Source of the DNA: an uncultured Bacteroidales bacterium
Lineage (GTDB): Bacteria > Bacteroidota > Bacteroidia > Bacteroidales > VadinHA17
DNA: 64,000 bases
NCBI GenBank assembly: GCA_963843635.1
Contig: CAWJLF010000012.1
Coordinates: 143,259 to 207,258, forward strand
Direction of reading: 5' to 3'
Shown: in pieces, positions 8,398 to 46,680 of the stretch
How the letters are laid out: each line of letters begins with the position of its first letter
Numbering within the stretch: the first letter of the stretch is position 1
The notes under the pieces: generated by a model
What the model was told of the DNA's origin: nothing
Database searches by the model: none
Seen by the model: only the letters and a program-made list of their open reading frames with translations
Translations under genes and position numbers: made by a program

Positions 8398-8494
8398 AGC
8401 TAATAATCCCTGGCAAAGATAGTATGATTTATTTAATCCGTTGTCCGTTGAGTATCATAATAAGGGTAAAGGAGACACCTTCTGATGAAGAGCA

Positions 8495-10501: not shown

Positions 10502-10533
10502 TAATTAGTACAAAAACAGTAAATTTAGAAGTT

Positions 10534-11499: not shown

Positions 11500-11506
11500 C
11501 ACTGTA

Positions 11507-11534
11507 GCAGGGACGTTGCAGGCAACGTCCCTGC
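11507..11534. terminator. perfect 13-bp inverted repeat (GCAGGGACGTTGC-AG-GCAACGTCCCTGC) between etfA and the downstream Fe-S gene
   Basis: Read directly. GC-rich stem with no clear T tract after it (ataaaaac), so it may be an attenuator or processing hairpin rather than a strong terminator. Confidence 0.45.
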
Positions 11535-11561
11535 ATAAAAACAGAATTTAATCAGTCAATC

Positions 11562-12896
11562 ATGACGAAACAGATAGTATTTGCGATCACACTCCTGGTT
11601 ACACTGGGAATATTTACTTATACCATAAGCAGGCTCATCAGATTTTTCAGGTTCACCCGTTCAGCATTCCCGGTCAGGGATTTCGGCAAGAGAATCAGAG
11701 TCATGCTCGCTGTTGCTTTTGGTCAGACAAAGATCTTTCGCAGGCCTGTAATAGGGTTATTTCATGCATTGGTATTCTGGGGATTTTGTGTTATTCTCAT
11801 CGGGAGTATCGAGATGGTTATCGACGGCCTGTCCGGTTCAGACAGGATTCTTCAGTTCCTCGGTCCGGTTTATAATGTTATAATGGCCTCAGGCGATATT
11901 TTTGCGCTACTTGTTGCCGTGTCCATTGTAATATTCCTTAGCCGGAGAATTTTCTTCCATATTAAGAGATTTGAGGGTATAGAGATGAAAAAAATCTCTC
12001 ATATTGATGCCAATATAGCTCTTACAATCATATTGTTATTAATGTTGTCCCTACTCTCAATGAATGCTGCCTATGTTAATTACAAGTCAGTAACGGGGGA
12101 AGCTATGGCCGGAATCTTCCCTGTGGGGAGATACCTGGCAGGCCTGTCTGGCGGTGGGGAGGCACACAGTTACTCCCTGGTGTATGAAGCTTCATGGTGG
12201 ACACATATAGTATTGATATTCATCTTTGCAAATATTTTGCCCTATTCCAAACATTTCCATGTGTTCATGTCGGTGCCAAATGTTTTCCTTTCGAGACTTG
12301 ATCCGCTGGGCAAGCTCCCCAACATGGACAGCATCACACGGGAAGTTAAACTGATGCTTAATCCTGATACTGCCTTTACCGCCGATACAGGAGAAGTTCC
12401 ATATGAGAGATTCGGGGTCAAAGATGCTGAGGATGCTTCATGGAAAAATTATTTTGATTCCCTTGCATGCACCGAATGCGGAAGATGTACATCTGTGTGT
12501 CCCGCCAATATAACAGGTAAGAAACTATCTCCAAGGAAGATCATGATGGATCTTAGAGCAAGGATGAAGGAAAAGGGTCCCTTGATGGTAAAGAACGGGA
12601 GAGACTTCAATGATAACAGGTCGCTTCTCAGGGACTTTATTTCCGAGGAGGAACTGTGGGCCTGCACAACATGTAATGCATGTGCAAAAGAATGCCCTAT
12701 TAACATAAATCATCCGACTCTAATTTTAGATATGAGACGTTACCTGGTAATGGAAGAAGCTTCGGCACCCGGTGAACTGAAAACGGTATTTAATAACATT
12801 GAGAACAACGGGGCTCCATGGCAATACTCGGCAGAGGACAGACTTGAGTGGGCAAAAGACCTCGAGATGGGCGTTCGGTCGGAGGTAACTGTCTGA
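11562..12896 (+). CDS. EtfD-like membrane Fe-S oxidoreductase, N-terminal module (polytopic membrane domain plus 2x[4Fe-4S])
   Basis: 444 aa. Multiple TM helices, then CTECGRCTSVCP and CTTCNACAKECP ferredoxin motifs. Located directly after etfBA. Confidence 0.7.
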   Translation: MTKQIVFAITLLVTLGIFTYTISRLIRFFRFTRSAFPVRDFGKRIRVMLAVAFGQTKIFRRPVIGLFHALVFWGFCVILIGSIEMVIDGLSGSDRILQFLGPVYNVIMASGDIFALLVAVSIVIFLSRRIFFHIKRFEGIEMKKISHIDANIALTIILLLMLSLLSMNAAYVNYKSVTGEAMAGIFPVGRYLAGLSGGGEAHSYSLVYEASWWTHIVLIFIFANILPYSKHFHVFMSVPNVFLSRLDPLGKLPNMDSITREVKLMLNPDTAFTADTGEVPYERFGVKDAEDASWKNYFDSLACTECGRCTSVCPANITGKKLSPRKIMMDLRARMKEKGPLMVKNGRDFNDNRSLLRDFISEEELWACTTCNACAKECPININHPTLILDMRRYLVMEEASAPGELKTVFNNIENNGAPWQYSAEDRLEWAKDLEMGVRSEVTV

Positions 12897-12925
12897 TAAA
12901 CAGAAGAAAACATATTAAACCGAAT

Positions 12926-13720
12926 ATGGAAACCAGGAAAATTGAAGTACCCGTGATGGCTGATCTCTTTGCGAAGGGAGAGAAGCCTGAATACCTGTTT
13001 TGGGTGGGATGTGCCGGAGCTTTTGATGACAGATACAGGAAAGTTGTAAGAGCATTTACCAAGATACTCACCTACCTGGACATAAATTTTGCAGTTCTCG
13101 GAAAAGAGGAGACCTGCACGGGTGATCCTGCCAGGCGTGCTGGAAACGAGATGCTTTACCAGATGCAGGCTTTGCAGGTAATAGAGATACTGAAGATGTA
13201 TGATGTAAAAAAGATCATTACCATATGTCCCCATTGTTTTAATATTTTCAGGAATGAATATCCCGATCTGGGTGGTCATTACGAGGTGTTTAATTATCTT
13301 CAGTTGCTGGACCGCTATATGGCAGAGGGTAAACTGAAGATCAATCAGGCTTCGTTGCAAGACGTTAAAGTCACCTATCACGATCCATGTTACCTTGGAA
13401 GGGCAAATGACATATATGACGAACCGCGTCATATCATTAAGAGACTTACCGGCAATATGGTTGAGATGCACAGGCATAAGAGCTTCGCGCTCTGTTGTGG
13501 TGCGGGGGGTGGTCAGATGTTTAAGGAGGCTGAGAAGGGTGATAAAGAGGTATTTATTGAAAGAACAGAAGATGCTCTTGAAACTGGTGCCAGTGTTATT
13601 GCAACAGCCTGTCCATTCTGTATGACTATGCTTACTGACGGTTTAAAGTATAAAAACAGGGAGAATGAAATAAAAAATCTTGATATTGCTGAATTAATAG
13701 TCCAATCACTTGATATATAA
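12926..13720 (+). CDS. CCG-domain (HdrD/GlcF-like) Fe-S protein, partner of the preceding membrane module
   Basis: The ORF runs 12848..13720. The preferred start is METRKIEVPVMADLF at 12926. Cys-rich CCG-type motifs: WVGCAGAFD, CTGDPARRAGNE, ICPHC, HDPCYLGR, ALCCGAGGG, ACPFC. Confidence 0.7.
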   Translation: METRKIEVPVMADLFAKGEKPEYLFWVGCAGAFDDRYRKVVRAFTKILTYLDINFAVLGKEETCTGDPARRAGNEMLYQMQALQVIEILKMYDVKKIITICPHCFNIFRNEYPDLGGHYEVFNYLQLLDRYMAEGKLKINQASLQDVKVTYHDPCYLGRANDIYDEPRHIIKRLTGNMVEMHRHKSFALCCGAGGGQMFKEAEKGDKEVFIERTEDALETGASVIATACPFCMTMLTDGLKYKNRENEIKNLDIAELIVQSLDI

Positions 13721-13743
13721 ATCCAATTATTAAACTGACAAAA

Positions 13744-15522
13744 ATGGAAAACAGCAAACTTTTGAAAAGCGGTGAATTTCTTGTAAGCGAAGTTGAATCA
13801 AAAGATGTCTTCATTCCGGAAGAATTTAATGAGGAACAGAAGATGATAGCGCAGACATGCAGTGACTTTCTTGAAGCAGAAGTTTATCCTAATATTGAAC
13901 AGCTGGAAAAAAGTGACAGGGATCTCATGAAGAGTATTCTGAAGAAGTCAGGTGATCTTGGATTAATGGGTGTTTCAATACCTGAGGAATTTGGGGGATT
14001 CGGCCAGTCCTTTGTAACTCAGATGCTTGTGGCTGAGACAACAGGTGCAGGTTATTCTTTTTCAGTGGCATATATGGCGCATTGTGGTATTGGCACTCTC
14101 CCGATAATGTATTATGGGAACAAGGATCAGAGGGACCGGTATGTATCAAAACTGGCAACAGGTGAGATTATTGGTGCTTATTGTCTTACGGAACCTGGTG
14201 CCGGAAGTGATGCCAATTCGGGTAAAACAAATGCCAAATTGAGTGAGGATGGAAAAGATTACATCCTTAACGGGCAGAAAATGTGGATCACCAATGCCGG
14301 ATTTGCCGATTCTCTTGTCGTCTTTGCCAAAATTGACAACGACAGGGTCCTCAGTGCTTTTATAGTTGAAAGCAAATATCCAGGCGTGGTAATTGGCCAG
14401 GATGAACACAAGATGGGTATAAAGGGCTCCTCGACAGCACAGATCTACTTCAATGATGTAAAAGTACCTGTTGAAAACCTTCTTGGTAAGAGAGGCGAGG
14501 GGTTCAGGATAGCACTTAGCATCCTTCATATGGGAAGACTGAAGCTTGGGGCCAACGTGCTGGGTGCTGCAAAAAAAACAATAACAGATACGGTAAGATA
14601 TGCTAATGAAAGGAAGCAGTTTGGAGTACTAATATCAACTTTCGGAGCGCTGAAGTATAAAATGGCTCAGCAGGTTATTCGTCTTTTTGCATCAGAATCA
14701 GCTGTTTACCGGGTAAGCAACGATATTGATAACCTGATGAAAAAGCTCACTGTTGATTGTGGTGACTATGGGAGAGCCTCAATCGAGGCTATAAGTCACT
14801 ATGCTGTTGAAGCAGCTATCCTGAAGGTTGTTGGTTCCGAGATGCTTGATTATGTTGCTGATGAAGCAGTTCAGATACACGGAGGAATGGGTTACTCTGC
14901 TGAAATGTCTGTTGAAAGAGGATACCGTGATTCAAGAATAAACAGGATCTTCGAGGGAACAAATGAGATAAACAGGCTCCTGGTGGTTGATACAGCCATG
15001 AAGCGGGCCATGAAGGGTGAGTTTGACCTCTTTGGAGAGGCTGAGGCCTTATACGACAGCCTGGAGAAGATAAATGACGGGAAGAAAGATGGTGAAAGCT
15101 ATTACGAGGAGAAGAAAAGATATATCAAAAACTTTAAAAAGGTCATTCTGCTTTGTATTCATGGAGCTTCCAAACGCTTTGAGAAAAGCCTTATTTACGA
15201 GCAGGAAGTATTGAATAATATAGCGGAAATGATGATGGAAACCTATGTTTCCGAGTCACTGGCGCTGAGGGTTGAGAAGCTGGAATCCTTAAAAGGGAAT
15301 GCATCACTTTACAGGGATATGCTTGATGTCAACCTTTTTGATACTGCCGATATTGTCAGAAAATCTGCTTTTGAGGCGGTCGGTTCATTCTCAGAACCTG
15401 AGATATGCGGTTCGCTGACCGGAGCAGTTGAAGATCTGACAAGGGTTAATTGTATAAATGTGAAAGATGCCAGGCGCAGGATAGCTGACAGGCTTATTGA
15501 AGATAACATGTACAAATTCTGA
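13744..15522 (+). CDS. acyl-CoA dehydrogenase, long form with C-terminal extension
   Basis: 592 aa. Motifs: GAYCLTEPGAGSDA, WITNAG, QIHGGMGY, EGTNEINR. Confidence 0.9.
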   Translation: MENSKLLKSGEFLVSEVESKDVFIPEEFNEEQKMIAQTCSDFLEAEVYPNIEQLEKSDRDLMKSILKKSGDLGLMGVSIPEEFGGFGQSFVTQMLVAETTGAGYSFSVAYMAHCGIGTLPIMYYGNKDQRDRYVSKLATGEIIGAYCLTEPGAGSDANSGKTNAKLSEDGKDYILNGQKMWITNAGFADSLVVFAKIDNDRVLSAFIVESKYPGVVIGQDEHKMGIKGSSTAQIYFNDVKVPVENLLGKRGEGFRIALSILHMGRLKLGANVLGAAKKTITDTVRYANERKQFGVLISTFGALKYKMAQQVIRLFASESAVYRVSNDIDNLMKKLTVDCGDYGRASIEAISHYAVEAAILKVVGSEMLDYVADEAVQIHGGMGYSAEMSVERGYRDSRINRIFEGTNEINRLLVVDTAMKRAMKGEFDLFGEAEALYDSLEKINDGKKDGESYYEEKKRYIKNFKKVILLCIHGASKRFEKSLIYEQEVLNNIAEMMMETYVSESLALRVEKLESLKGNASLYRDMLDVNLFDTADIVRKSAFEAVGSFSEPEICGSLTGAVEDLTRVNCINVKDARRRIADRLIEDNMYKF

Positions 15523-16292: not shown

Positions 16293-16306
16293 ATGATATA
16301 GATCAA
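16293..16306. promoter_or_regulatory. FNR/CRP-type box candidate (aTGAT-ATAG-ATCAA) upstream of the cytochrome operon
   Basis: 9/10 match to TTGAT-N4-ATCAA read directly. It lies about 90 nt upstream of the TATATTTG box. Confidence 0.3.
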
Positions 16307-16390: not shown

Positions 16391-16434
16391 TGAATAAATT
16401 AACAATAATTTTTAATATGAATCAGAAATTTAAT

Positions 16435-16794
16435 ATGAAAAGACAGATTTTGGTTGCACTGGCCATGGTTGCCATTATGATCGGAATATCTTCATGTGAA
16501 AAGTACTCTTTTTTGCCACCGGTCATTAACCCGGTTGACACTATCCATTTTGCAACAGATATCCAGCCAATCTTTAATGCAAATTGTATAACATGTCATG
16601 GCAGTCTCAGGGCACCTGATCTCAGAGAAGGGAAATCGTATGAAGCACTTACCAAAGGTGGTTTTGTTGATCAGCCAGGTGAGACAAGCTTACTCTATAC
16701 ACAGATGAACAAATCGGATCATGTTCCAAGGTCAACAGATGCCGATAAACAAAAAGTACTCATCTGGATAAACCAGGGAGCCCTTGATAATTAA
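16435..16794 (+). CDS. monohaem c-type cytochrome lipoprotein with a Planctomycete-cytochrome-C (PSCyt1)-like domain
   Basis: Lipobox MKRQILVALAMVAIMIGISSC. Also IQPIFNANCITCHG ... LIWINQGA, the PSCyt1-like pattern with a single CxxCH. Confidence 0.65.
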   Translation: MKRQILVALAMVAIMIGISSCEKYSFLPPVINPVDTIHFATDIQPIFNANCITCHGSLRAPDLREGKSYEALTKGGFVDQPGETSLLYTQMNKSDHVPRSTDADKQKVLIWINQGALDN

Positions 16795-16825: not shown

Positions 16826-17686
16826 ATGAAAAAGCTCTTAATACTATTGACATTATCTTTCTTTCTTTCTTCTCTGTCAGCACAGGATACTCAGACAAAG
16901 GAAGAGTCCACTCCTGTACGCTTTACCTTTGGAACGAACATGCTCATCGATAATCAGACAGTTGAATCTCCCTATAAAGGTGGATTACAACTTCAGATTC
17001 AGCACAGGTTCAGCCTTATTGAGAACTACCATAACCTTTATGGTATATATGGTTCAGCTAATACGAGGCTTGCTCTGACTTATGGTATTACAGACAAGCT
17101 GATGGTTGGTGTCGGAACAACAAAAGATTACCAGATGCAGGATATAGAGTGGAAATACAGGATCCTCAGTCAGACTGAAGATGGTAAGATGCCTGTTTCA
17201 CTTTCCTACTTCGGGAATGTAGTAGCGGACCTCAGGACAAGTGAAGCCTTCGGCCCTGAACAAAGTTTTAGGAATATTCACAGGTTCTCATATTTTACAC
17301 AGTTGATTCTTGCCCGTAAATTCTCAGAAAAAATATCAGCTCAGATTGCTCCATCGGTTATATATTTCAACTCTGTGCCAAGATACAGTGATACCCAGGG
17401 ATATAAAAACGTGAACTTCGGTATATCAGCCGGGGCACGCGCCAACCTGTTTGGCAACCATTCACTTATACTTGAGTATGATCAGCTTCTTTCAAAACAG
17501 GATCTTGATGTTCAGCCAAAACCCAACCTGGCTTTTGGATGGGAGATCAATACAGCAACTCATACCTTCCAGATTTTTGCAGCCAATTATAACCAGATCA
17601 TCAGCCAGAGGAATCTTGTATTCAATACGAATGATTTCACAAAAGGAGGTTACCTGTTGGGTTTTAATATAACTGTAAGGTTTTAA
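16826..17686 (+). CDS. outer-membrane beta-barrel protein (DUF5777-like)
   Basis: Signal peptide ending SLSAQ, alternating-hydrophobicity strands, C-terminal ...GFNITVRF with a terminal Phe. The DUF5777 assignment is from memory of the family. Confidence 0.6.
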   Translation: MKKLLILLTLSFFLSSLSAQDTQTKEESTPVRFTFGTNMLIDNQTVESPYKGGLQLQIQHRFSLIENYHNLYGIYGSANTRLALTYGITDKLMVGVGTTKDYQMQDIEWKYRILSQTEDGKMPVSLSYFGNVVADLRTSEAFGPEQSFRNIHRFSYFTQLILARKFSEKISAQIAPSVIYFNSVPRYSDTQGYKNVNFGISAGARANLFGNHSLILEYDQLLSKQDLDVQPKPNLAFGWEINTATHTFQIFAANYNQIISQRNLVFNTNDFTKGGYLLGFNITVRF

Positions 17687-17706: not shown

Positions 17707-18714
17707 ATGAATTTTTATAAGTTCAGGATCATTACCCTGTTCGCATTAGCATCATTGAGTTCGTTTGCATTTGCAAGCCCGTTTGATTTTGGAAACCAGG
17801 AAAACAAGATTCAGGATACGACTTCCTTTGTTTCCCCTTTTGCAGAAGATAACGAGAGGTGCTTCAAATGCCACGGTCAGTCATTATACGAATACACTAA
17901 TGAGACTCTAGGACGGCAGGTGCGGGATATTATGTGTTCTGAAAGGATTGTCAACAGGGAGGAGTTCTACAGGTCAAATCATAAAAGCTTCAGCTGTACT
18001 GACTGTCATTCTGAGGAATATACAACATTTCCTCATCCTGGTGAACTGAGGATGGAACAGATGTATAATTGTATCGATTGTCATGGAGGGGATGAGAGGT
18101 TCGCTAAATACCATTTTGAGGAGATTGAGACTGAGTACCAGCAGAGCGTTCACTATAAACTGGAAAAGGATGGATTTTCATGCTGGAAATGTCATAATCC
18201 GCATACTTACAGGATCAGCGTCAGGACATCAGAGAACCTCAGAGAGACCATTGCATATGATAATGCAATATGCCTTAACTGTCATTCCAACTTCAATAAT
18301 TTTCAGTTGCTGACAGACAGGAAAGAGATCAATATCATTCAGAAGCATGACTGGCTTCCAAACCAGACAGCACATTTTGCCAATGTACGATGTATTGAGT
18401 GTCATACCCAGATTAACAGTGAAGTTCCTGTTGCTCATCTTATTAAACCAAAGGAAGAGGCAGTACGTCTTTGCAATGAGTGTCATTCCCGGAATTCTAT
18501 CCTGATGGCTTCACTCTACAAATTTGAATCGAAGGAGAGTCGTCGAAATGGTTTTTTCAATGGTATTATTCTTAATGAATCATATGTTATCGGCGCAAAC
18601 CGGAATGAATATCTTAACCTTCTGAGCCAGTTTTTATTCATTGCCGTACTGGGCATCATTCTCATTCATATCATATTCAGGATCAGAAAAAGTAAAACTT
18701 ATAAAGGAGATTGA
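17707..18714 (+). CDS. heptahaem c-type cytochrome with signal peptide and C-terminal TM anchor
   Basis: Seven CxxCH sites: CFKCH, CTDCH, CIDCH, CWKCH, CLNCH, CIECH, CNECH. C-terminal helix LSQFLFIAVLGIILIHIIFRI. Confidence 0.85.
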   Translation: MNFYKFRIITLFALASLSSFAFASPFDFGNQENKIQDTTSFVSPFAEDNERCFKCHGQSLYEYTNETLGRQVRDIMCSERIVNREEFYRSNHKSFSCTDCHSEEYTTFPHPGELRMEQMYNCIDCHGGDERFAKYHFEEIETEYQQSVHYKLEKDGFSCWKCHNPHTYRISVRTSENLRETIAYDNAICLNCHSNFNNFQLLTDRKEINIIQKHDWLPNQTAHFANVRCIECHTQINSEVPVAHLIKPKEEAVRLCNECHSRNSILMASLYKFESKESRRNGFFNGIILNESYVIGANRNEYLNLLSQFLFIAVLGIILIHIIFRIRKSKTYKGD

Positions 18715-18715
18715 A

Positions 18716-19327
18716 ATGTATCTTTACCCTAAATGGATAAGGCTCTGGCATCTTATTAACGCTGTATTGTTCATTATTCTGATTATTACCGGATTAAGTA
18801 TGCAATATACCGGGAAAGACAATCCTGCCTATATGGTCGGTTTTGCCAAAGCTGTGAAATGGCATAATTTTGCTGCCGTTCTGTTGATTATCAATTATAT
18901 AATATTTGTCACCGGTAACATATTTACCAGTAATGGAAGACACTATAAAGCGGATAAGAAGAGCTTTACAGCAGATATCATCAGGCAGCTGAAATATTAT
19001 TCTTTCGGTATGTTCAGAGGAGAAAAAAAGCCCTTTGAGATAACTGAAACCAATAAGTTCAATCCGCTGCAAAAGTTCAGCTATCTTCTTGCAATGTATA
19101 TTGCTCTTCCTTTGCTGATTATATCTGGTATAGGCTTGCTGCTTCCTGAGATCACCATAAATCGCTTTCTGGGTGTGAGTGGACTGATTTACACAGATAT
19201 TCTTCATATAACTATGGGTTTCTTTTTATCGATCTTCATGCTGATCCATATTTATACATGCACGCTTGGAGCTAAACCAACTTCATTGTTCTGGGGTATG
19301 ATTACCGGTTATCACCGGTCCGAATAA
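18716..19327 (+). CDS. di-haem b-type cytochrome membrane subunit (FdnI/HydC/PhsC-like)
   Basis: The ATG lies 1 nt after the upstream stop codon. Four TM-embedded His residues (WHLINAV, KWHNFAA, ILHITMG, LIHIYT) and 4-5 TM helices. Confidence 0.7.
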   Translation: MYLYPKWIRLWHLINAVLFIILIITGLSMQYTGKDNPAYMVGFAKAVKWHNFAAVLLIINYIIFVTGNIFTSNGRHYKADKKSFTADIIRQLKYYSFGMFRGEKKPFEITETNKFNPLQKFSYLLAMYIALPLLIISGIGLLLPEITINRFLGVSGLIYTDILHITMGFFLSIFMLIHIYTCTLGAKPTSLFWGMITGYHRSE

Positions 19328-19346: not shown

Positions 19347-20309
19347 ATGAAAGAGATGGAAGAAAATGAAGGTAAACGATCATCGAGACGCAATTTCATC
19401 AAGAAAGTCGGAGTAGGTGTTGGAGCTGTCTCTATTGCCGGCGTTGCCGGAACATCAGTAATAGGAAAAAACAATTTAAAGTCAGGCGAAAAGGTCCGCT
19501 TGCTTTCTACTGATGGCAAACTGGTTGAGGTGGACAAGGATGATATCCAGCCTGCCGGAGATGTTGTAGCTGAATTAAAGGAGGAAGCAAGAGTCGGTCT
19601 GCCAAACAGAAAATTTGTTATGGTAATTGACCTGGCGAAGTGCAAGAATGCCAGAAAATGTGTTGAGGCATGCCAGGAAGGCCACCTTCTGCCGAAGGAC
19701 CACGAGTGGATGAAGATATTTCTTCTCCAGGATGATCATGATACTACAAAGTACTGGTTTCCCCGGCCATGTTTCCATTGTGATAAACCAATGTGCGTTA
19801 GTGTTTGTCCCGTGGGCGCCACATATAAGAGAGATGATGGTATTGTGCTGATTGACAACCAGAGATGTATAGGATGTAAATTTTGTATGACCGGCTGCCC
19901 GTACTCCGTAAGAGTTTTTAACTGGGATGATCCTAAGGTTGAAGTACCGGAAGGCTATGAATACGATCCGGAAAAGGCAATCCCGCAGGTTGAGGGTACA
20001 GTGGGAAAATGTATATTCTGTGCTGATAAGCTTCGTATGGGTGAATTGCCGCGATGCGTCTCCGCATGCCCTATGGGAGTACTGTATTTTGGTGATATCC
20101 TTGAAGATACTGTTACTAACGGAGAAGAGACTGTCAGGTTCAGCAAGCTGATGAATGACAGGGCAGGATATCGTTACCGTGAAGACCTGGGAACCCTGCC
20201 AAGCGTATTTTATCTCCCCCCTGTTCAACGTCTGTTTCCTGTTGAAAGAGGAATGGAGGATCTTCCTGACTCACTTAAACTGAGGTATAAAGATGCCGGC
20301 CCCAGGTAA
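19347..20309 (+). CDS. Tat-exported Fe-S cluster subunit (NrfC/PsrB/HybA-like)
   Basis: Twin-arginine motif SRRNFIKKVG. Cluster motifs: CKNARKCVEAC (CxxAxxCxxxC, second Cys replaced), CFHCDKPMCVSVCP, CIGCKFCMTGCP, CIFC...CVSACP. Confidence 0.85.
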   Translation: MKEMEENEGKRSSRRNFIKKVGVGVGAVSIAGVAGTSVIGKNNLKSGEKVRLLSTDGKLVEVDKDDIQPAGDVVAELKEEARVGLPNRKFVMVIDLAKCKNARKCVEACQEGHLLPKDHEWMKIFLLQDDHDTTKYWFPRPCFHCDKPMCVSVCPVGATYKRDDGIVLIDNQRCIGCKFCMTGCPYSVRVFNWDDPKVEVPEGYEYDPEKAIPQVEGTVGKCIFCADKLRMGELPRCVSACPMGVLYFGDILEDTVTNGEETVRFSKLMNDRAGYRYREDLGTLPSVFYLPPVQRLFPVERGMEDLPDSLKLRYKDAGPR

Positions 20310-20331
20310 TTAACTGCATAATCTGATTATT

Positions 20332-21639
20332 ATGATGACTGAGAAGAAATTGCTTGAGGATTTGACTCCCGAGATTGAATCTACCACATTAAGATGGTAC
20401 CTTACATTTGCCGCATTCTTTATAGTCTTCTGCTTAGGCATCTATGGTTTGATCCAGCAGATTGACAAGGGACATATTGTTACAGGGATGCGAGATAATG
20501 TCGTTTGGGGTCTTTATATTGTCAACTTCATATTCTTTATGGGTTTGAGTTATGCCGGAGCCCTTTTATCAGGAGTGCTTCATCTTTTCCATACGGGTTG
20601 GCGAAAGCCTGTAATAAGGCTTGCAGAACTCATAACTGTTATCTCACTTGTGATAGGACCCTTCTTTATCTTTTTCTGTATAGGCCGCCTCGACAGATTG
20701 CCATTTCTCATATTACACCCCCGTATTCAGTCCCCGATTACTTGGGACGTCATTGCAATCAGCACAGACCTAGTCGGATGTTTTATGTATCTGTATCTGT
20801 CATTCATTGAGGATTTTGCAATTCTTCGCGATTACCAGGAACTCAATGTTCCTCAGTGGAAACGCAATGTCTACAGGGTATTGTCCCTTGGTTTTACCGG
20901 AACCGAAACACAGAAAAAGATATTAAAAAGAGCAAAAAATGTAATGGCATCTATGATTATTGCCATCGCTATCATTGTATATTCTGTTTTGGCCTGGATA
21001 TTCGGTGTTACACTTCAACCGGGATGGCATTCAACTATTTTCGGTCCATACTTTGTTATTGCAGCTGTATTCTCGGGAACTGGCTTACTCATTATACTGA
21101 TGTTCATATTCAGAAAGGTATATCACCTGGAAGAATATATTACAAAACGCCATTTTGTTAATGTAGGGGTACTGCTGACAATTATCGCTGCATTCTATGG
21201 ATATTTCACCTTCAGTGACTACCTGACAAAATGGTATGGATCAATAAAGATGGATTCACTCCTTATTGACAAGCTTTTTTCAGATTATTATTCCCTGTTT
21301 ATATTTGCTAACTATGTGGGTATTCTTATACCATGTGTTATAATAGCGTTCCCGAGATTCAGGAACATAAGGAGTATTACCATTGCTGCCGTGATAGCAG
21401 TGACAGCCCTGTGGGTAAACCGCTATATAATTGTGATCCCTACTCTTGAGACTCCATTTCTTCCCATTCAGGATACACGACCTGACTGGATACAGTATTC
21501 CCCGACATGGGTGGAATGGTCACTTACATTTGCAGGACTTGCTGTTTATGGAATGTTGTTCATGCTGGTCTCCAAGATAGCTCCAATTATCTCTATTTCG
21601 GAGATGAAAGAACAGGATAAGGTTGAGATATTGAAGTAA
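20332..21639 (+). CDS. NrfD/PsrC-family polytopic quinol-interacting membrane subunit
   Basis: 435 aa, about 10 TM helices, immediately downstream of the NrfC-like gene. WGLYIVNFIFFMGLSYAGALLS is a typical NrfD-type helix. Confidence 0.8.
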   Translation: MMTEKKLLEDLTPEIESTTLRWYLTFAAFFIVFCLGIYGLIQQIDKGHIVTGMRDNVVWGLYIVNFIFFMGLSYAGALLSGVLHLFHTGWRKPVIRLAELITVISLVIGPFFIFFCIGRLDRLPFLILHPRIQSPITWDVIAISTDLVGCFMYLYLSFIEDFAILRDYQELNVPQWKRNVYRVLSLGFTGTETQKKILKRAKNVMASMIIAIAIIVYSVLAWIFGVTLQPGWHSTIFGPYFVIAAVFSGTGLLIILMFIFRKVYHLEEYITKRHFVNVGVLLTIIAAFYGYFTFSDYLTKWYGSIKMDSLLIDKLFSDYYSLFIFANYVGILIPCVIIAFPRFRNIRSITIAAVIAVTALWVNRYIIVIPTLETPFLPIQDTRPDWIQYSPTWVEWSLTFAGLAVYGMLFMLVSKIAPIISISEMKEQDKVEILK

Positions 21640-21653
21640 AGCAGAAAGTTATT

Positions 21654-22544
21654 ATGAAAAAAATTATCACAGGCACCCTGATCATACTGGCATTACTGAC
21701 TATTGCTTCAACGGACTCATATTCGCAGGAAGCAGAAATGATAAGTCCGTATATACAGCTGCAATATTTCAAGAATACCAATGACAGTTCATCCTTAAAG
21801 ACAGCTCTTACTTACTCTGTGAACCGGATGGAGCTCCCTATAAAGGACATGAAGATCCTGTTTTATGCCGGAGTAGGAGGGGACAGGAAGCAGATCGGAG
21901 AAGCAGTCACCAACGATAAGGGTGTGGCCATTCTTCATCTTAGTGACAGGTCTGATTTTATTGAAGATGAAACAGGTCAGTGGGCTTTCAGCACTGAATA
22001 TGCGGGTAATGATACAATAGAATCAGCCTCAGCTGATCTTTTGATTCAGAATATAGAAATAGCCATGGAGCTGACAGAGCCGGATAGCATTAAAACAGTT
22101 GCCCTTACCGTTATGAAGGTGACAGATGGGAAAAGAGTACCTGCTGCCGGGGAAATGCTGACAGTTTATGTTCCCCGAATGTTCAGCTTCCTTCCGATTG
22201 GTGATGTTATACTTGACGATGCAGGATACGGATCACTTGAGTTTCCTGCGGACCTTCCGGGTGACAAAGATGGTAACCTGACAATAATTGCCAGGTTTGA
22301 CGAGCACCCGGAATTCGGGAATGTTGAGAAGGAGGCCACTTTAAAATGGGGAGTCCCATCATCTTATTCGATTCCTAAGGGACACAGGGCATTATGGACT
22401 AAAGTAGCTCCCCTGTGGATGATATATACCCTGTCCATCCTTCTGACTGGTGTATGGGGTCATTATATGTTTGCTTTGATAAGCCTTATCAGAATAAAGA
22501 GAGATGCCAAAAAGAATGAATCCGGAGATCTACGGACAAGGTGA
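21654..22544 (+). CDS. hypothetical exported protein with C-terminal TM anchor (operon member, function unknown)
   Basis: Signal peptide MKKIITGTLIILALLTIAS and C-terminal helix LWMIYTLSILLTGVWGHYMFALISLI. No motif I recognise. Confidence 0.5.
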   Translation: MKKIITGTLIILALLTIASTDSYSQEAEMISPYIQLQYFKNTNDSSSLKTALTYSVNRMELPIKDMKILFYAGVGGDRKQIGEAVTNDKGVAILHLSDRSDFIEDETGQWAFSTEYAGNDTIESASADLLIQNIEIAMELTEPDSIKTVALTVMKVTDGKRVPAAGEMLTVYVPRMFSFLPIGDVILDDAGYGSLEFPADLPGDKDGNLTIIARFDEHPEFGNVEKEATLKWGVPSSYSIPKGHRALWTKVAPLWMIYTLSILLTGVWGHYMFALISLIRIKRDAKKNESGDLRTR

Positions 22545-22600
22545 ATAAAAAAATTGCACGAAAATTGTTATCTCTATTTTGTAAATTAAAATGAAGTGTT

Positions 22601-22996
22601 ATGAAAAAAATGAAATTACTTTTATTTAGCTCGGCTCTGCTATTAATGAGCGCATCAATGTCTGCACAGACAAAACCCTGGGTGGTACCCGCGAACTTTA
22701 AATCAATGAAGAACCCAATTGCTATGAGTGATGCCAGTAAAAAAGCAGGCATGACTCTCTATACCAGGAACTGTGCATCCTGCCATGGAAAGGCCGGACT
22801 GGGTGATGGTGTAAAAGCCAGGATGCTGAAAGACTTCCCTGGTGATTTTTCAAAGGCTGATTTTCAGAATCAGACTGACGGTGAACATTTTTATAAGACA
22901 AAGACCGGAAGAGGTGAAATGCCTAAGTATGAAGGTAAGTTATCCGATAATGACATCTGGAACATTGTAAATTATATGAGATCCTTCAAAAAATAG
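22601..22996 (+). CDS. class I monohaem cytochrome c
   Basis: Signal peptide, CASCHG haem site, distal GEMPKY Met ligand motif, 131 aa. Confidence 0.85.
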   Translation: MKKMKLLLFSSALLLMSASMSAQTKPWVVPANFKSMKNPIAMSDASKKAGMTLYTRNCASCHGKAGLGDGVKARMLKDFPGDFSKADFQNQTDGEHFYKTKTGRGEMPKYEGKLSDNDIWNIVNYMRSFKK

Positions 22997-23016: not shown

Positions 23017-23051
23017 AAAAAAGGGACATGCATCAGCATGTCCCTTTTTTG
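23017..23051. terminator. bidirectional rho-independent terminator between convergent cytochrome genes
   Basis: A7-GGGACATGC-atca-GCATGTCCC-T6 hairpin read directly. Confidence 0.7.
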
Positions 23052-23065
23052 TATCTGTTATTCTT

Positions 23066-24127
23066 TTATTTTACTACTGGTGGTGTATAACCCAGTCCAG
23101 TCATTGTAGCGATAGAATTATCAAGAAGAGTGTTTATGTATCCGGGGTTGTGGACACCCAGGCTCTTGTCCTGAGCAACTGCATCATAATCGAGGTAGGC
23201 CAGAACTACATTTGCTTTGAATGTACCTGCTGCTGCGAGGTCCGTAGCCACATCGTATATTCCAGCTGCAATAAGCTGAGCCTTAAGAGTTCCAAGCTTG
23301 GCAGTAACCTCGGTCTGAAGCGCCTCATAGTCAGGAACAGTTGGGTGGCAGGTCATGCAACCTGTGGTATTTATTTCTTCAGCACCGTGTACCATATAAG
23401 TCATACCCATGTTATGTCCACCAGCCTGGTAGCCATAAGGAGTTGCCAGGTGGCAAGTGATACAACCATTATCTCCAAAATGAGAATTGCTTGTCGGATA
23501 GGCTTCCCCGGGAAGTTCAAAAGGAATTTTACCAAGCAGGAAATTGGCCATTGGAGCATGATGTACACCTATACGTGAATCGTCACTGGTAATCACAAAA
23601 TCATCTCCGTCAAGTACAGGTGCCGGCGATACGTCGCGTGCCTGGTGGCATCCCACGCACTGGTTACTGTTACCGTTATCATAAGTAACAGATGCACCTG
23701 CATATTTGAGGATCAGAGTTTCTGCCCCGGGCTTGGTAAGAGCCCAGTCATCAGTGGTGAATGTGGTATGAATCTGATGACATGTGTAGCAGTTGATCTG
23801 CATAGGATCAGAAGGAACGGATATATCAGCATCTGAACCCTCTGCAACATACTCCAGGAAACCCTGGCTGGTATGGCAGCGAACACAACCTTTACGGTTG
23901 GCATAAGCAGCATTTACACCTGTGGCATGAACAGACTCACTCCACTGTGCTTGTTTTGTTTCAATTAAAGCGCTGTTGTCATGACATGTGGTACATGTTG
24001 CATTTGCATCGATACCATTAGCGCCATCTTGCCCATCTTGACCAGCAGGACCAGCAGGACCTTCACAGGACACAAGAATAAATCCAGCTGCAAACAAGGC
24101 AGAAAGTAGTTTAATCAGGTTTTTCAT
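23066..24127 (-). CDS. hexahaem c-type cytochrome lipoprotein with a collagen-like G-X-Y linker
   Basis: Lipobox FILVSC, then EGPAGPAGQDGQDGANG. Six CxxCH sites: CTTCH, CVRCH, CYTCH, CVGCH, CITCH, CMTCH. Confidence 0.85.
   Translation of the reverse strand: MKNLIKLLSALFAAGFILVSCEGPAGPAGQDGQDGANGIDANATCTTCHDNSALIETKQAQWSESVHATGVNAAYANRKGCVRCHTSQGFLEYVAEGSDADISVPSDPMQINCYTCHQIHTTFTTDDWALTKPGAETLILKYAGASVTYDNGNSNQCVGCHQARDVSPAPVLDGDDFVITSDDSRIGVHHAPMANFLLGKIPFELPGEAYPTSNSHFGDNGCITCHLATPYGYQAGGHNMGMTYMVHGAEEINTTGCMTCHPTVPDYEALQTEVTAKLGTLKAQLIAAGIYDVATDLAAAGTFKANVVLAYLDYDAVAQDKSLGVHNPGYINTLLDNSIATMTGLGYTPPVVK
24024..24059. repeat. two pairs of tandem 9-bp repeats encoding the G-X-Y linker
   Basis: ccatcttgc-ccatcttga-ccagcagga-ccagcagga on the + strand, encoding GPAGPAGQDGQDG on the - strand. 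Confidence 0.8.
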
Positions 24128-24240: not shown

Positions 24241-24254
24241 TTGATAAATGTCAA
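24241..24254. promoter_or_regulatory. FNR/CRP-type box candidate TTGAT-AAAT-GTCAA in the divergent cytochrome/regulator intergenic region
   Basis: 9/10 match to TTGAT-N4-ATCAA. Its centre is about 40 nt upstream of the start site predicted from the TATTTTTG box at 24274. Confidence 0.35.
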
Positions 24255-24331: not shown

Positions 24332-25027
24332 ATGTCAGATAAAAATTTAAAAGAAAATTACGAAAACTGCACGAAAACATGGAAGAATTTTAAATACCTG
24401 ACAGGGGATGAGCTTCATATGATTGATGAAAACAGGTATGAAGCAACATTCAAACCCGGTGAAATAATATTGAAGCAGGGATCTCCTACTTCCAATGCTT
24501 TATTTCTTACTGATGGAATGGCAAAGACATATATTGAAGGCAATAATGGCAGGAACTTCATCATGGGAATAGCATTGCCCGGGCAATTGATAATTGGCCC
24601 TGGCGCTTATGTAAATTCGAGGCATACATATTCTGTAGCTGCCATTACTACTGTACAGGCCTGTTTTATCAACTTCGACATATTCAGACGGCTGTTAAAA
24701 ATAAACGGGAACTTTGCCGAAAGCCTGATGGAAGATATTAGTATCAATTCAATGAGATCGCATACCAGGATGGTGAACCTTGCTCAAAAGAAAATGCCGG
24801 GAAGACTGGCTGAAGCTATACTCTATTTTTCTGATGAGATCTTCAAATCTGATGAATTTGAAGTGATACTTTCGAGGCAAGAATTGGGAGAGATGACCAA
24901 TATGGCAAAGGAATGTGTTGTCAGAATTCTCAGGGAACTTGAGGAATTGGGAGTTATTCGTTCCGATTCATCAAAAATAAAAATAGTGGACAAAAAGAAA
25001 CTAGTTCAGATATCAGAAAAAGGCTGA
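24332..25027 (+). CDS. Crp/Fnr family transcriptional regulator (no N-terminal FNR Cys cluster)
   Basis: cNMP-binding-like beta-roll (FKPGEIILKQGSPTSNALFLTDGMAK) and C-terminal HTH SRQELGEMTNMAKECVVRILRELEELGVI. Only one Cys in the N-terminal 30 aa. Confidence 0.85.
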   Translation: MSDKNLKENYENCTKTWKNFKYLTGDELHMIDENRYEATFKPGEIILKQGSPTSNALFLTDGMAKTYIEGNNGRNFIMGIALPGQLIIGPGAYVNSRHTYSVAAITTVQACFINFDIFRRLLKINGNFAESLMEDISINSMRSHTRMVNLAQKKMPGRLAEAILYFSDEIFKSDEFEVILSRQELGEMTNMAKECVVRILRELEELGVIRSDSSKIKIVDKKKLVQISEKG

Positions 25028-25097
25028 CGGAGCAGGAAGGAAAGTGTATGGGTTTCCTGCTTCCTTTTATTATATTAAAACAAAATCTATAATTATT

Positions 25098-28000
25098 ATG
25101 AAACATTTGAAGTTTCTCATCTCTCCTGTTTTCATGGGAGTATTGTTTGTAATATTTGCCGTATCGATGGCAGTTGCAACGTTTATTGAAAATGACTTTG
25201 GCTCATCAGCTGCATATAATATGGTATATAACACCAGGTGGTTCGAATTAATACTCCTGCTCCTGGTTGTCAACCTTATTGGACAGCTGATAGTTTTTAA
25301 GCTGTTTAAGAAAACCAGGCTGACTGGTGCCCTTTTCCATCTGTCATTCGTCGTAATGATATTAGGTGCAGGGATAACACGGTATTTCGGGTGGGAAGGA
25401 ACCATCCACATCAGAGAAGGAGAAGTGCAGGACAAATGTTTTTCGACCGACAAGTACATTGGATATTCAATAAAGGATCAAAATGGGAATCTAGTGGCTC
25501 AGGATATGGAAAAGTATTCAATGACCTCTGTTTCAGCAGAAAACTATGAAAAAAACATAAGCCTTAATAACAATAACTATCAGCTTGTTCTTTCCAAAAT
25601 ACTTCCAAATGCTTCCGAAGTCATTTCAGAAAATCCGGAAGGCACTCCTGTAGTTTCACTGGTCCTCACAAAAGACATGATTACCCAGGATAACCTGATA
25701 ATAAAAAAAGGAGAAAGTAAGTCATTTGACGGAGTGTCATTCAGCTTTGACCCTGCCATATCAGCTGACATAAATATTTCATACGATTCAGCCGGGTTTT
25801 ATCTCAGTTCAGGTACTGAAATAGGAGAGATGGGAATGGGATCCCATGATATCATAAAAGTTGCTCCAGGGGAAAGGGTGGAGATGTCGAAAATGCAGGT
25901 ATTTACCATAAATGACCTTAAGATTATTCCACAGACATTAAATGCATCGGGAATGGTAACTGCTGTTGCGGTCAATCCGGCTCAGCGTAATACAGGTCTG
26001 AATGCCTTTATTTTTCACGTTTATGGCAATGATAAATCGGAGACCCTTTATTTGTGGGATCGCAATTCTGAAAAGGTAGCGACAGACAGTTGTGTGGTTG
26101 ACGGTTATAAAATTGCGCTTAGTTATGGTTCTAAGATCACAACTCTTCCTTTTTCGATTAAGCTGAATGATTTCATTATCGACAGGTACCCCGGCTCAAA
26201 CAGCCCATCGGGCTATAAGAGTGATGTGACACTTATCGACAGTAAGGCAGGCATTGAAAAACCCTTTATGATCTTTATGAATAATATTCTTAAATACAAA
26301 GGTTATCGTTTTTATCAGTCCTCTTTTGATCGCGATGAGCAGGGTACCATTTTGTCTGTCAATCATGACAGGGCAGGTATGTTAGTAACCTATACAGGTT
26401 ATGCATTGCTGTTTTTCTTTATCATTCTTTCCCTGATAAACAGGAATTCTGTTTTCTATAAGGTAAATGCTGGTTACTGGCAGTCAAACCTGAGAAAGGT
26501 AATCCCATCGCTGATCATCATCTTCTTTCTTTCGGGTCTTTCTTCGGTGAATGCTCAAAAGCTGGTTCCCGGGAAAGATGTTTCGACAGAATTCGGGAAG
26601 GTGCTTGTACAGGATCAGAAGGGAAGGACCAAACCTCTGTTTACTCTCAGTAATGATATCCTGCGCAAGGTAACCAGGAAGAATGAGTTTGACGGATTAA
26701 CCTCCATGCAGGTATTCATGGGTATTTTCCTTGATTTCGACCACTGGAAGGATGTACCTCTCATCACTGTTTCAAATAAAGACCTCCGTAAGAAGATAGG
26801 AATAAGTGGAAAATATGCAGCCTTTTCAGACCTGGTTGATCTTGGAGGGAACGGTAACTATAAGATATCCGCGGATGTCAACAGCGCCTATTCAAAGGCA
26901 CCCGGCGAAAGGACAAAGATGGATAAGGAGGTGATGAAGGTCGATGAAAGACTGAACATCATATACATGATATATAAAGGTGATTTCCTGAAACTGTTCC
27001 CTCTCAAGAATGGAACTCATGACTGGGGTTCTCCTGAAGAAGCTCTCAAAGGGGCAGTAAGCAAGGAAGATTCAGTATACCTAAGCAATATTATCCCGGT
27101 ACTGTCTAATGCCATGACCACCAATAATATTGCTGATACAAGAAAGATTACCGAATCAATAAGCGGATACCAGGAAAGATTTGCACAGTATGATCTTCCT
27201 TCAACCTTTAAAACGAAAGCCGAATTATTATATTACAGGCTTGGCATCTTTGAAAAGCTATTCCCCTTTTATGCCACTGTCGGACTCATTATGCTTATTA
27301 GCCTGATAACAATGGTTATCAGAGGTAAAAATAAAAAATCTCTATTTATCAGGTTGTTGGGATGGCTGTTGTTTGGCGGCTTTCTTTTCCATACTTTTGG
27401 TTTGGTCCTCAGGTGGTATATTGCCGGTCACTCACCGATGAGCAACGGGTATGAATCAATGATTTTTATTTCCTGGGTTACTCTTCTTGCCGGGTTTATC
27501 TTCAGCAGAAAATCGCCTTTTGCACTTTCTGCAACTGCAGTGCTCGGGTCCATGACCCTCATGGTTGCACATCTCAGTTTTATGGACCCTGAGATTACCA
27601 ACCTTGTGCCTGTATTAAAATCATACTGGCTTACTTTGCACGTTTCAGTTATAACAGGTAGTTATGGGTTTCTGGGATTAGGAGCCATTCTGGGACTGAT
27701 AACACTCATACTGCTGACCTTGTCAAATAATAGGAACCGTGAAAGGATATCTGTAACCATTGATGAATTAACAGTAATTAATTATAAGACCCTTACACTG
27801 GGACTGTATTTTCTGACGATCGGTACTTTTCTCGGTGCTGTATGGGCAAATGAATCATGGGGCAGGTACTGGGGATGGGATCCAAAAGAGACATGGTCGC
27901 TTATTACAATAATTGTATACAGTATTGTGATACACTCACGACTCATACCAGGTATGAAAGATGTATATTCTTTTAACCTCCTGTCACTCGTTGCTTTCTT

Positions 28001-44880: not shown

Positions 44881-45129
44881 ATGAAATATATATTTTCTTT
44901 AATAAACCGACTTTTTCATTTTTATTATGATGGATTCAGAAATATGTCGGGATGGGGCAGAAAGGTATGGCTAATAATAATTATTAAGCTATTTATTATG
45001 TTTGTTGTATTGAAAATTTTCTTTTTCCATAATTTTCTAAATAAGAAATATGATAATGACCGGCAGAGAAGTGAGTATGTTCTGGATCAATTAATTAATT
45101 CACCTGATACCCATGATAGAAAACATTGA
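44881..45129 (+). CDS. DUF4492-like small membrane protein preceding cydA
   Basis: 82 aa. YYDGFRNMSGWGRKVWLIIIIKLFIMFVVLKIFFF. Overlaps the cydA start by 17 nt. The family name is from memory. Confidence 0.55.
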   Translation: MKYIFSLINRLFHFYYDGFRNMSGWGRKVWLIIIIKLFIMFVVLKIFFFHNFLNKKYDNDRQRSEYVLDQLINSPDTHDRKH

Positions 45130-46669: not shown

Positions 46670-46680
46670 GAGGTTAAAAT

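Follow-up and report, generated by a model that had tools for sequence, protein, structure and literature searches.

Kinship and possible role of a CbcBA/PhsC-like heptahaem cytochrome c and dihaem cytochrome b gene pair in an uncultured Bacteroidales bacterium

Two adjacent genes of an uncultured Bacteroidales bacterium (Bacteroidota, VadinHA17), one for a seven-haem cytochrome c and one for a dihaem cytochrome b, raise the question of whether they encode a quinol-oxidising enzyme related to CbcBA of Geobacter sulfurreducens. The genes lie at positions 17707-19327 of a stretch of 64,000 nucleotides (nt) from assembly GCA_963843635.1 (contig CAWJLF010000012.1, forward-strand positions 143,259 to 207,258), and the whole stretch is called the window here. 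CbcBA consists of a dihaem b subunit (CbcB) and a seven-haem c subunit (CbcA) with a histidine-bearing C-terminal anchor (Joshi et al., 10.1101/2021.04.15.440034). The resemblance had been pointed out in an earlier note made from the letters of the window and a list of its open reading frames (ORFs). The pair is a genuine and well-conserved module of the CbcBA family, whose occurrence in Bacteroidetes has already been published. Judged from its sequence, it probably forms a two-subunit inner-membrane quinol:cytochrome c oxidoreductase of a CbcBA/PhsC-type family.

The heptahaem c and dihaem b subunits

The first gene (17707-18714, forward strand) encodes a CbcA-like heptahaem cytochrome c of 335 aa, identified by ORF calling, CxxCH counting and a profile match in the PDB that is given below. 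The protein contains exactly seven CxxCH motifs (CFKCH, CTDCH, CIDCH, CWKCH, CLNCH, CIECH, and CNECH), a signal-peptide-like N-terminus (MNFYKFRIITLFALASLSSFAFA), and a single hydrophobic C-terminal helix (FLFIAVLGIILIHIIF) followed by RIRKSK. The ORF analysis thus bears out the earlier description of seven haem motifs, a signal peptide, and one C-terminal transmembrane (TM) helix. Pfam returned generic multihaem models only, and an exact look-up of the 335-aa protein in protein records gave no match. All seven CxxCH motifs are invariant in a set of fusion proteins (36/36) and in a family set (30/30), which cover several phyla. Seven distal histidines are also conserved (residues 92, 110, 149, 166, 214, 223, and 244); all are invariant in both sets except H110, which is present in 30 of 30 sequences of the family set but in 33 of the 36 fusions. 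Because seven CxxCH motifs and seven extra histidines are conserved, all seven c haems would be bis-His ligated. The anchor helix spans about residues 305-327 (18619-18687, forward strand) and carries H321 (codon 18667-18669), present without exception in both sets (36/36 and 30/30), and R325, which is found in 35/36 and 30/30. An HxxxR motif was seen in every intact anchor helix across the 80 loci described below. A helix at residues 300-332 was also predicted in an AlphaFold2 (AF2) model with an overall predicted local distance difference test score (pLDDT) of 44.

The second gene (18716-19327, forward strand) encodes a dihaem cytochrome b of the PhsC/CbcB type with 203 aa and four TM helices, as assigned using Pfam, NCBIfam, and alignment. 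The stop codon of the heptahaem gene (TGA, 18712-18714) is followed by a single base (A, 18715) and then by the ATG of the b gene (18716), and the start one nt past the stop given in the earlier note is therefore correct. Public assemblies contain a 203-aa protein (P0121) that is 100% identical and shares its start. The protein matches PF01292 (prokaryotic cytochrome b561/Ni_hydr_CYTB) with 82 bits. A search of 1.84 billion cluster representatives returned 571 relatives, of which the 130 near-full-length ones were aligned. The four helix-embedded histidines noticed before are H12, H50, H164, and H178; they proved near-invariant, being kept in 121-128 of the 130 family representatives. They align with H18, H57, H155, and H169 of FdnI and with H22, H63, H184, and H198 of HyaC (both Escherichia coli), which we take to be the ligands of haems bC and bP in the crystal structures. 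N116 and Q119, also invariant, align with FdnI N110 and Q113, which presumably line the pocket for 2-heptyl-4-hydroxyquinoline N-oxide (HQNO) or menaquinone. By analogy with FdnI, H12 and H178 would bind the haem on the cytoplasmic side, and H50 and H164 the haem on the periplasmic side. Together with these four, H321 of the c subunit is a fifth conserved histidine, and it and R325 go beyond what the earlier note had described. The two termini and the long TM2-TM3 loop together hold 14 lysines and arginines and the other loops 4, which under the positive-inside rule indicates an FdnI-like topology with both termini inside. Helices were placed at residues 6-30, 37-70, 117-142, and 156-182 in the AF2 model of the b subunit (pLDDT 67), and the sole suggestive fold match of this poor model was a weak one to HyaC in 6g94 (E 0.5).

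For gene linkage, one genome per GTDB species was scanned using a query alignment led by a Bryobacteraceae sequence, and relatives of the b protein were located at at least 557 places. Flanks were examined for the best 80 of these, which are referred to as loci and designated by L numbers. The best 80 include Acidobacteriota (Bryobacterales), Calditrichia, Ignavibacteria, Kapaibacteria, Chloroflexota, and Binataceae, numerous Bacteroidales (Lentimicrobium, Mariniphaga, Rikenellaceae, and Marinilabiliales), and Proteobacteria (Magnetococcales, Rhodoplanes, Rhodocyclaceae, Thiocapsa, and Noviherbaspirillum); Geobacter is not among them. Relatives also occur in Prolixibacteraceae. The 20 representative clusters that were named comprise only Bacteroidales, Aquipluma, Bryobacterales, and Magnetococcales, with no Geobacter CbcB. 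Among the matches listed, the closest named genomes are Bacteroidales, which confirms the Bacteroidota context.

A homologue of the heptahaem protein is encoded immediately 5' of the b gene, on the same strand, in all 76 loci with readable upstream DNA. Two further loci hold in-frame c-b fusions, and the total is 78 of 78 informative species genomes in about ten phyla. With a multihaem gene abutting the b gene in every one of the 76 loci and fused to it in the other two, the pairing in the window is not due to chance, and the failure of the two genes to co-occur in related genomes, which the earlier note had counted as a possible outcome, was not observed. The upstream partner has seven CxxCH motifs in about 60 loci, 13 in nine, and 8 or 10 in a few. 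The b start lies between -14 and +36 nt from the c stop; a 4-nt ATGA overlap is the mode (17 loci), and a 1-nt gap like that of the window was found in eight loci. Cluster representatives of about 500-550 aa or longer are mostly fusions that run from seven CxxCH motifs through an anchor helix into cytochrome b. Because both proteins are joined in one chain in these fusions, they constitute Rosetta-stone evidence that the heptahaem c and the cytochrome b would form one unit.

Some variants were seen among the loci. The partner with 13 CxxCH motifs (about 490 aa) occurs in L011, L021, L022, L029, L055, L065, L073, L075, and L080, which are mostly Ignavibacteria/Kapaibacteria, and the b ORF of L011 and L021 is 735 aa long with an extra C-terminal six-haem domain (6 CxxCH). 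In L002 (3.18-Mb contig), the genes for cytochrome b, NrfD, and the 296-aa protein described below are split by frameshifts; these and the frameshifts in L084 are probably long-read assembly errors rather than signs of pseudogenes.

Kinship with CbcBA and PhsC

In G. sulfurreducens, CbcBA (Cbc5) is made up of the heptahaem c CbcA (GSU0594) and the dihaem b CbcB (GSU0593). CbcB is usually annotated as thiosulfate-reductase-like, and homologues of cbcBA have been stated, in one sentence, to occur in Bacteroidetes (Prolixibacter, Marinilabiliales, and Labilibaculum); they are also given for Caldithrix and Verrucomicrobia and, as fusions, for Chloroflexi (Joshi et al., 10.1101/2021.04.15.440034). 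The enzyme carries out low-potential, low-yield quinol oxidation and is needed below about -0.21 V, and CbcA has a midpoint of about -279 mV (10.1101/2021.04.15.440034; PMC13591261). Complementation in Geobacter requires cbcA and cbcB only, and the structure of CbcA has been solved, with its code printed as '2BPB' (PMC13591261, a 2026 review).

The Geobacter proteins were represented here by two proxies, PDB entry 28pb and the uncultured relative L084. Entry 28pb is most likely Geobacter CbcA, since the review reports a CbcA structure and '2BPB' was read as 28PB. Its chain 28pb_A, a 278-aa 'Cytochrome c' with seven CxxCH motifs, is the best PDB sequence match of the window heptahaem protein (E 2.5e-4). 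A profile of 30 family members matched 28pb_A with E 8.8e-19 over haems 1-6, and the next match was NrfA (3e-10); the lack of any relation to CbcA that the earlier note had envisaged for the haem protein is not what was found. When 28pb was searched against the protein collection, no 100% match was obtained, which suggests that the collection does not contain the Geobacter protein; the closest relative (65% identical) is encoded on L084. The order on L084 is a divergent sigma54 response regulator and kinase, a cbcA-like gene, a stop-T-ATG junction, a gene for a 217-aa PF01292 b protein, and a c7-type multihaem gene, which is the published cbc5 layout of the Desulfuromonadia type. The window b protein is 30% identical to the L084 CbcB-like protein over the full length (E 6e-29), and the window heptahaem protein is 21% identical to the stitched L084 CbcA-like protein over haems 1-6 (E 1e-11). 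A YxxGxxR juxtamembrane motif and the HxxxR anchor were recognised by eye in both window and CbcA-like proteins, and the L084 CbcA-like protein ends in ...PILHGTLRF..., with the His/Arg anchor motif.

Because the b and c matches, the c-then-b order, the 1-nt junction, and the HxxxR anchor motif agree, these comparisons indicate that the likeness to CbcBA is homology in both subunits and, as the earlier note had thought possible, more than architecture. Both systems have a periplasmic seven-haem c with a C-terminal anchor that bears a conserved His, and a four-helix PF01292 'thiosulfate-reductase-like' b encoded directly after the c gene; the 1-nt junction (TGA-N-ATG) is common to the window and the Desulfuromonadia-type L084. 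A low-potential quinol:cytochrome oxidoreductase had been suggested to exist outside the Desulfobacterota. A relative is indeed present there, but such an occurrence is already in the literature, and the low-potential function is suggested by analogy and by the bis-His ligation.

The best curated model for the window b protein is PhsC, at 173.7 bits versus a cut-off of 204 (NCBIfam NF011582). Partner-linked b proteins scored 178 (Bryobacteraceae) and 180 bits (Magnetococcales) with this model, true five-helix PhsC 311-345, and the Geobacter-type CbcB-like protein of L084 110. The window b protein lies at a BLOSUM distance of 0.59-0.63 from haem-linked b proteins in other phyla, 0.65-0.66 from true PhsC, 0.74 from the CbcB-like protein, and 0.90-0.93 from FdnI/HyaC. 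It falls below the cut-offs of both the FdnI model (49.1 bits; TIGR01583, cut-off 115.85) and the HydC model (42.1 bits; TIGR02125, cut-off 121.5). Part of the FdnI/HydC/PhsC-type pattern claimed before therefore stands, in that the haem ligands align with FdnI and PhsC is the best model, whereas the FdnI and HydC parts reach 49 and 42 bits only. FdnI/HyaC and the window b protein have in common PF01292, aligned haem histidines, and a periplasmic partner that lends one C-terminal helix. FdnI and HyaC/HydC enzymes reduce quinone. A formate dehydrogenase or hydrogenase gamma subunit was rejected as an identity, with scores far below the cut-offs and a distance of 0.90-0.93; the clustering with such subunits that had been considered was not found, the CbcB-like protein being nearer (0.74).

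A neighbour-joining (NJ) tree rooted on FdnI/HyaC, which has no bootstrap and short deep branches and is indicative only, placed the CbcB-like protein in a 36-leaf clade with many seven-haem fusions and the window b protein in the other, 170-leaf clade, which contains seven-haem fusions and nested true PhsC. The PhsC model matches the window b protein only from model position 56, which means that PhsC has one extra N-terminal helix (TM0) missing from the window protein. TM0 of true PhsC bears HxxxR (e.g., LLHALLRRR and IGHAVLRF), like H321...R325 of the c anchor. As HxxxR is common to TM0, the c anchor, and the fusions, the heptahaem anchor helix is the counterpart of the first helix of PhsC, which makes for a five-helix membrane unit in all three arrangements. 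The four haem histidines and the NPxQ/Y motifs are alike in PhsC and the window b protein. In PhsC, however, five helices are in one chain and the partner is PhsAB, whereas in the window the fifth helix comes from the c subunit and the partner is the heptahaem c.

Because the window b protein is closer to PhsC and lies in a different NJ clade, the window pair is best called a relative of CbcBA, from a different subfamily within one family of haem c plus PhsC-like b, and at most a putative orthologue. The job of passing electrons from quinol to periplasmic cytochromes is shared with CbcL (a Geobacter fusion of a nine-haem c and a HydC-like b), ImcH, and NapC/NirT/CymA. The b domain of the CbcL-like fusion of L084 is 24% identical to the window b protein (42 bits). 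A NapC/NirT/CymA/NrfH type was rejected, with no PF03264 match at E <= 0.01 and 24 bits versus 134 for NrfH (TIGR03153); the anchor of the NapC type is N-terminal, whereas that of the window heptahaem protein is C-terminal.

No literature description of the Bacteroidota cluster was found beyond one sentence in Joshi et al. (10.1101/2021.04.15.440034). The closeness to PhsC with the shared fifth helix, the scale of at least 557 places, and the Bacteroidota-specific neighbourhood (FNR boxes, a monohaem lipoprotein with a DUF5777 barrel, and a collagen-stalked multihaem lipoprotein, all described below) appear not to have been described.

Proposed electron path and competing explanations

As a quinol:cytochrome c oxidoreductase, the pair might work as follows. 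The heptahaem subunit would be exported and held by its one C-terminal helix, which would be donated as a fifth helix to the b subunit. Menaquinol would be oxidised at a pocket on the cytoplasmic side (N-side) lined by N116/Q119, H178 (a ligand of haem bC), and H321/R325 of the anchor, and electrons would pass from haem bC to haem bP, then to the seven periplasmic c haems and on to periplasmic cytochromes. H321 and R325 are one turn short of the cytoplasmic end of their helix, level with H12/H178 and the N116/Q119 pocket, and are proposed to help form the quinol site by analogy with His305 of Wolinella HydA; this residue of the HydA anchor helix was reportedly found by Gross and co-workers in 2004 to be needed for quinone reactivity. 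With an N-side quinol site, outward electron transfer would be assisted by the membrane potential and would dissipate it, as in PhsABC, which is said to be driven by the proton motive force (as reported by Stoffels and co-workers in 2012). Transfer driven in this way would suit low-potential acceptors and lower the energy yield, and a dissipative N-side mechanism fits the very low yield and the range of about -0.21 V of CbcBA and the -279 mV of CbcA. The c and b genes would be translationally coupled and co-transcribed in an eight-gene operon. The likely role would be to feed a periplasmic and outer-membrane cytochrome chain in extracellular or periplasmic anaerobic respiration. What the sequences show is the homology, the conserved haem ligands, the obligate linkage and fusion of the two genes, and the structure of the operon; the position of the quinol site, the direction of electron flow, the potential, and the acceptor are as we infer them.

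Several points weigh against this proposal. PhsC and the pairs of other phyla are nearer to the window b protein than the CbcB-like protein is, and the unbootstrapped NJ tree, with its short deep branches, puts the window and CbcB-like proteins into separate primary clades. Proteins of the CbcA type have an EF-hand-like insert of about 75 aa between haems 6 and 7 that the window type lacks; its loop reads DTDGDGLISLNELKKF in L084 and DTNNDNYISLAELRSF in 28pb_A (insert residues about 150-235). Regulation also differs, with Crp/Fnr boxes and a Crp/Fnr regulator in the window versus sigma54/BccR in Geobacter, and L084 retains the sigma54 regulator where the window pair has the Crp/Fnr one instead. 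CbcA and CbcB of Geobacter entered the comparison through proxies, of which 28pb is identified as CbcA by our reading of a printed code and L084 has a cbcA-like gene (8001-9052) with two frameshifts. Both AF2 models are poor (pLDDT 44 for the heptahaem protein and 67 for the b subunit), and Foldseek with the heptahaem model was uninformative. Among the profiled ORFs of the window, no c-type-cytochrome terminal reductase or recognised porin-cytochrome was found. The direction of electron flow, finally, is not fixed by sequence alone.

The main rival explanation concerns this direction. Electrons might flow in reverse, from donors in the periplasm or outside the cell (Fe(II), Fe(0), reduced humics, or a syntrophic partner were considered) through the c haems and b haems to menaquinone, in an Fdn-N-type redox loop that generates a proton motive force. 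This is how FdnI works, and the architecture, ligands, and quinone-site residues match it; the outer-membrane and monohaem components of the operon could serve uptake as well as export. Relatives are found in Prolixibacteraceae, a family that includes iron-corroding nitrate reducers. We nevertheless consider reverse flow rather unlikely, as the characterised relatives with this type of b, CbcBA and PhsABC, oxidise quinol, while the window suggests a fermentative microaerotolerant anaerobe in which no obvious high-potential quinol oxidase besides bd was found. A second explanation would make the pair the b/c arm of a larger complex like DsrMKJOP, Hmc, or alternative complex III (ACIII), formed together with the products of the downstream genes. 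Two quinone-interacting membrane subunits would then be combined. Six genes lie in one operon with gaps of 14-56 nt, the FeS protein comes near the DsrO equivalog (185.7/200 bits), the NrfD protein matches ActC with E 2e-51, and the six-gene order is repeated in L002, L003, L017, L035, L067, L068, L072, L077, and L082. Against a larger complex, the module of FeS protein, NrfD, and orphan protein stands beside the pair in about 11 of 83 loci only and in most genomes was not found within 8 kb, it is on the other strand in L041 and L054, and CbcBA acts as a two-gene unit in Geobacter (PMC13591261). Such a complex is unlikely.

It is highly improbable that the b protein serves as a true PhsC-type anchor in a molybdopterin reductase for thiosulfate, polysulfide, or tetrathionate, with the haem protein present only incidentally. 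Among the curated models PhsC scores best, relatives are annotated 'thiosulfate reductase cytochrome b subunit', and true PhsC is nested in the same clade. The score is below the cut-off (173.7 < 204 bits), however, and no equivalent of the first PhsC helix is present in the b protein, the haem protein contributing it instead. All 78 informative loci have a multihaem c as the partner, adjacent PhsA/PhsB genes were not found, and no molybdopterin subunit was recognised among the profiled long ORFs of the window (CcsBA, Lon, FtsH, and MBOAT). A true PhsABC anchor was rejected on these grounds.

H321/R325 offer a concrete target for probing the quinol site. CbcBA is the gate of Geobacter for respiration near the thermodynamic limit, and a homologous module in hundreds of species of about ten phyla is a candidate marker, at the genome level, for quinol-linked electron transfer in the periplasm or outside the cell. 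The module of Bacteroidales would be wired to distinct outer-membrane and lipoprotein cytochromes under Crp/Fnr-type control. The nesting of PhsC and the shared helix suggest how thiosulfate reductase anchors and bc-type modules for extracellular electron transfer are related. Current views are not overturned by the pair.

Operon, neighbouring genes, and a possible conduit

The pair constitutes genes 3 and 4 of the eight-gene operon, in which the intergenic gaps are 1-56 nt. An FNR/CRP-type palindrome, ATGATATAGATCAA (16293-16306, forward strand; TTGAT-N4-ATCAA with one mismatch), lies upstream. Gene 1 (16417-16794, forward strand; ORF call) encodes a 125-aa monohaem lipoprotein with a CITCH motif and the lipobox ISSC, and a homologue is found directly 5' of the DUF5777 gene in 43 related loci. 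Gene 2 (16826-17686, forward strand) encodes this DUF5777 protein, a beta-barrel with a signal peptide and a C-terminal Phe (PF19089, 231 bits), which is probably located in the outer membrane. Most Bacteroidota loci have the DUF5777 gene 5' of the pair; outside this phylum it was not detected. No literature on DUF5777 was found, and neither this protein nor the 296-aa protein below has a PDB sequence match. The monohaem lipoprotein and the DUF5777 barrel look like a split porin-cytochrome that is reminiscent of Cyc2. In Lentimicrobium-type loci, the small protein has lost its haem motif, and an additional monohaem c is encoded after the barrel.

Downstream of the pair, gene 5 (19347-20309, forward strand) encodes a 320-aa 4Fe-4S protein with a twin-arginine translocation signal that resembles DsrO, NrfC, PsrB, and ActB2; it scored 185.7 bits with DsrO (cut-off 200) and matched PsrB (2vpw_B, E 9e-27) and ActB (6f0k_B, E 7.5e-19). 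Gene 6 (20332-21639, forward strand) encodes an NrfD-family membrane protein of 435 aa (Pfam NrfD, 105 bits) that is closest to ActC of ACIII, with nearly full-length matches to 6f0k_C (E 1.9e-51) and 6btm_C (E 7e-48). Gene 7 (21654-22544, forward strand) encodes a 296-aa orphan protein with a signal peptide and a C-terminal TM helix; no Pfam, NCBIfam, or PDB match was obtained, and its gene always follows the FeS-NrfD pair. The last gene, gene 8 (22601-22996, forward strand), encodes a 131-aa monohaem class I cytochrome c (Pfam Cytochrome_CBB3 and Cytochrom_C) with PDB matches to c552 (E 1e-14) and ActE (E 5e-6). The order ActB-C-D-E of ACIII is mirrored by the FeS protein, NrfD, a small membrane protein, and monohaem c (19347-22996), but the pentahaem ActA, the molybdopterin-like B1 domain, and ActF were not found downstream. 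By sequence comparison, the module looks like a stripped-down ACIII or DsrOP. The FeS-NrfD-296-aa module adjoins the pair in only about 11 of the 80 loci, which marks it as a separable unit that moves as a block. Compared with these neighbours of the window pair (DUF5777, the monohaem lipoprotein, and the ACIII-like module), Geobacter has CbcC-E downstream.

The operon ends at a bidirectional terminator hairpin with a 15-bp stem (23017-23050), which it shares with a convergent gene for a 353-aa hexahaem lipoprotein (23066-24127, reverse strand). This protein has a collagen-like (G-X-Y)6 linker, GPAGPAGQDGQDGANGID, between the lipobox Cys and the first haem. The lipobox and 4-9 G-X-Y repeats are kept in 36 of the 39 homologues that adjoin the pair in Bacteroidota and Ignavibacteria (L002-L079), and the run may form a stalk that trimerises or spaces a cytochrome at the cell surface. 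No literature on collagen-like multihaem lipoproteins was found. A gene for a Crp/Fnr-family regulator of 231 aa, which has no FNR-type N-terminal Cys cluster, follows (24332-25027, forward strand), and the divergent intergenic region between it and the hexahaem gene contains a second FNR/CRP-type box, TTGATAAATGTCAA (24241-24254, forward strand). A box is found at the matching hexahaem/crp position in L002, L003, L024, L026, L040, L053, L054, and L070. The 64-kb window has only four FNR-like sites, and each of the two cytochrome-island promoter regions contains one of them. In 31 related loci, a box with one mismatch at most was located no more than 350 nt 5' of a gene of the cluster, mostly that for the multihaem lipoprotein or crp; many of these boxes are perfect palindromes, TTGATATATATCAA. 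They lie about 100-200 nt 5' of the first cluster gene or crp/fnr. The operon is probably controlled by the adjacent Crp/Fnr regulator. The Crp/Fnr gene, the multihaem lipoprotein, and the monohaem lipoprotein with DUF5777 accompany the pair in most Bacteroidota loci. A gene for a fused ResB/CcsA (CcsBA) cytochrome c maturation protein (25095-28184, forward strand) is also kept near the cluster in relatives.

The conserved Bacteroidota gene set, comprising an FNR-box promoter, the collagen-stalked hexahaem lipoprotein, the monohaem lipoprotein, the DUF5777 barrel, an optional monohaem c, the heptahaem c, and the cytochrome b, could be a complete and undescribed trans-envelope electron conduit, which we put forward tentatively and regard as a good deal less probable than its opposite. 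If it is one, the CbcBA-like pair would be the inner-membrane entry, the monohaem lipoprotein and DUF5777 a split Cyc2-like porin-cytochrome, and the collagen-stalked multihaem lipoprotein a terminal reductase at the cell surface. Such a conduit would explain how mineral or electrode respiration or iron corrosion might be carried out by many anaerobic Bacteroidales, Lentimicrobiaceae, and Prolixibacteraceae.

Further genes in the window bear on the host. The segment just 5' of the operon (9752-15522) encodes EtfB/EtfA, a CCG-domain membrane Fe-S oxidoreductase, and an acyl-CoA dehydrogenase of 592 aa, in an arrangement that is syntenic in the close relatives L002 and L003, and these genes are a plausible source of reduced menaquinone for the cytochromes. 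A flavodiiron-like protein, subunits I and II of cytochrome bd, HydF, and a sigma54-dependent response regulator are encoded at 41371-42594, 45113-47811, 58637-59869, and 61623-62798, respectively, and point to an anaerobe that tolerates oxygen. The presence of genes for the electron-transfer flavoprotein and acyl-CoA dehydrogenase, cytochrome bd, HydF, and a flavodiiron-like protein suggests that the host is an anaerobic or microaerotolerant fermenter.

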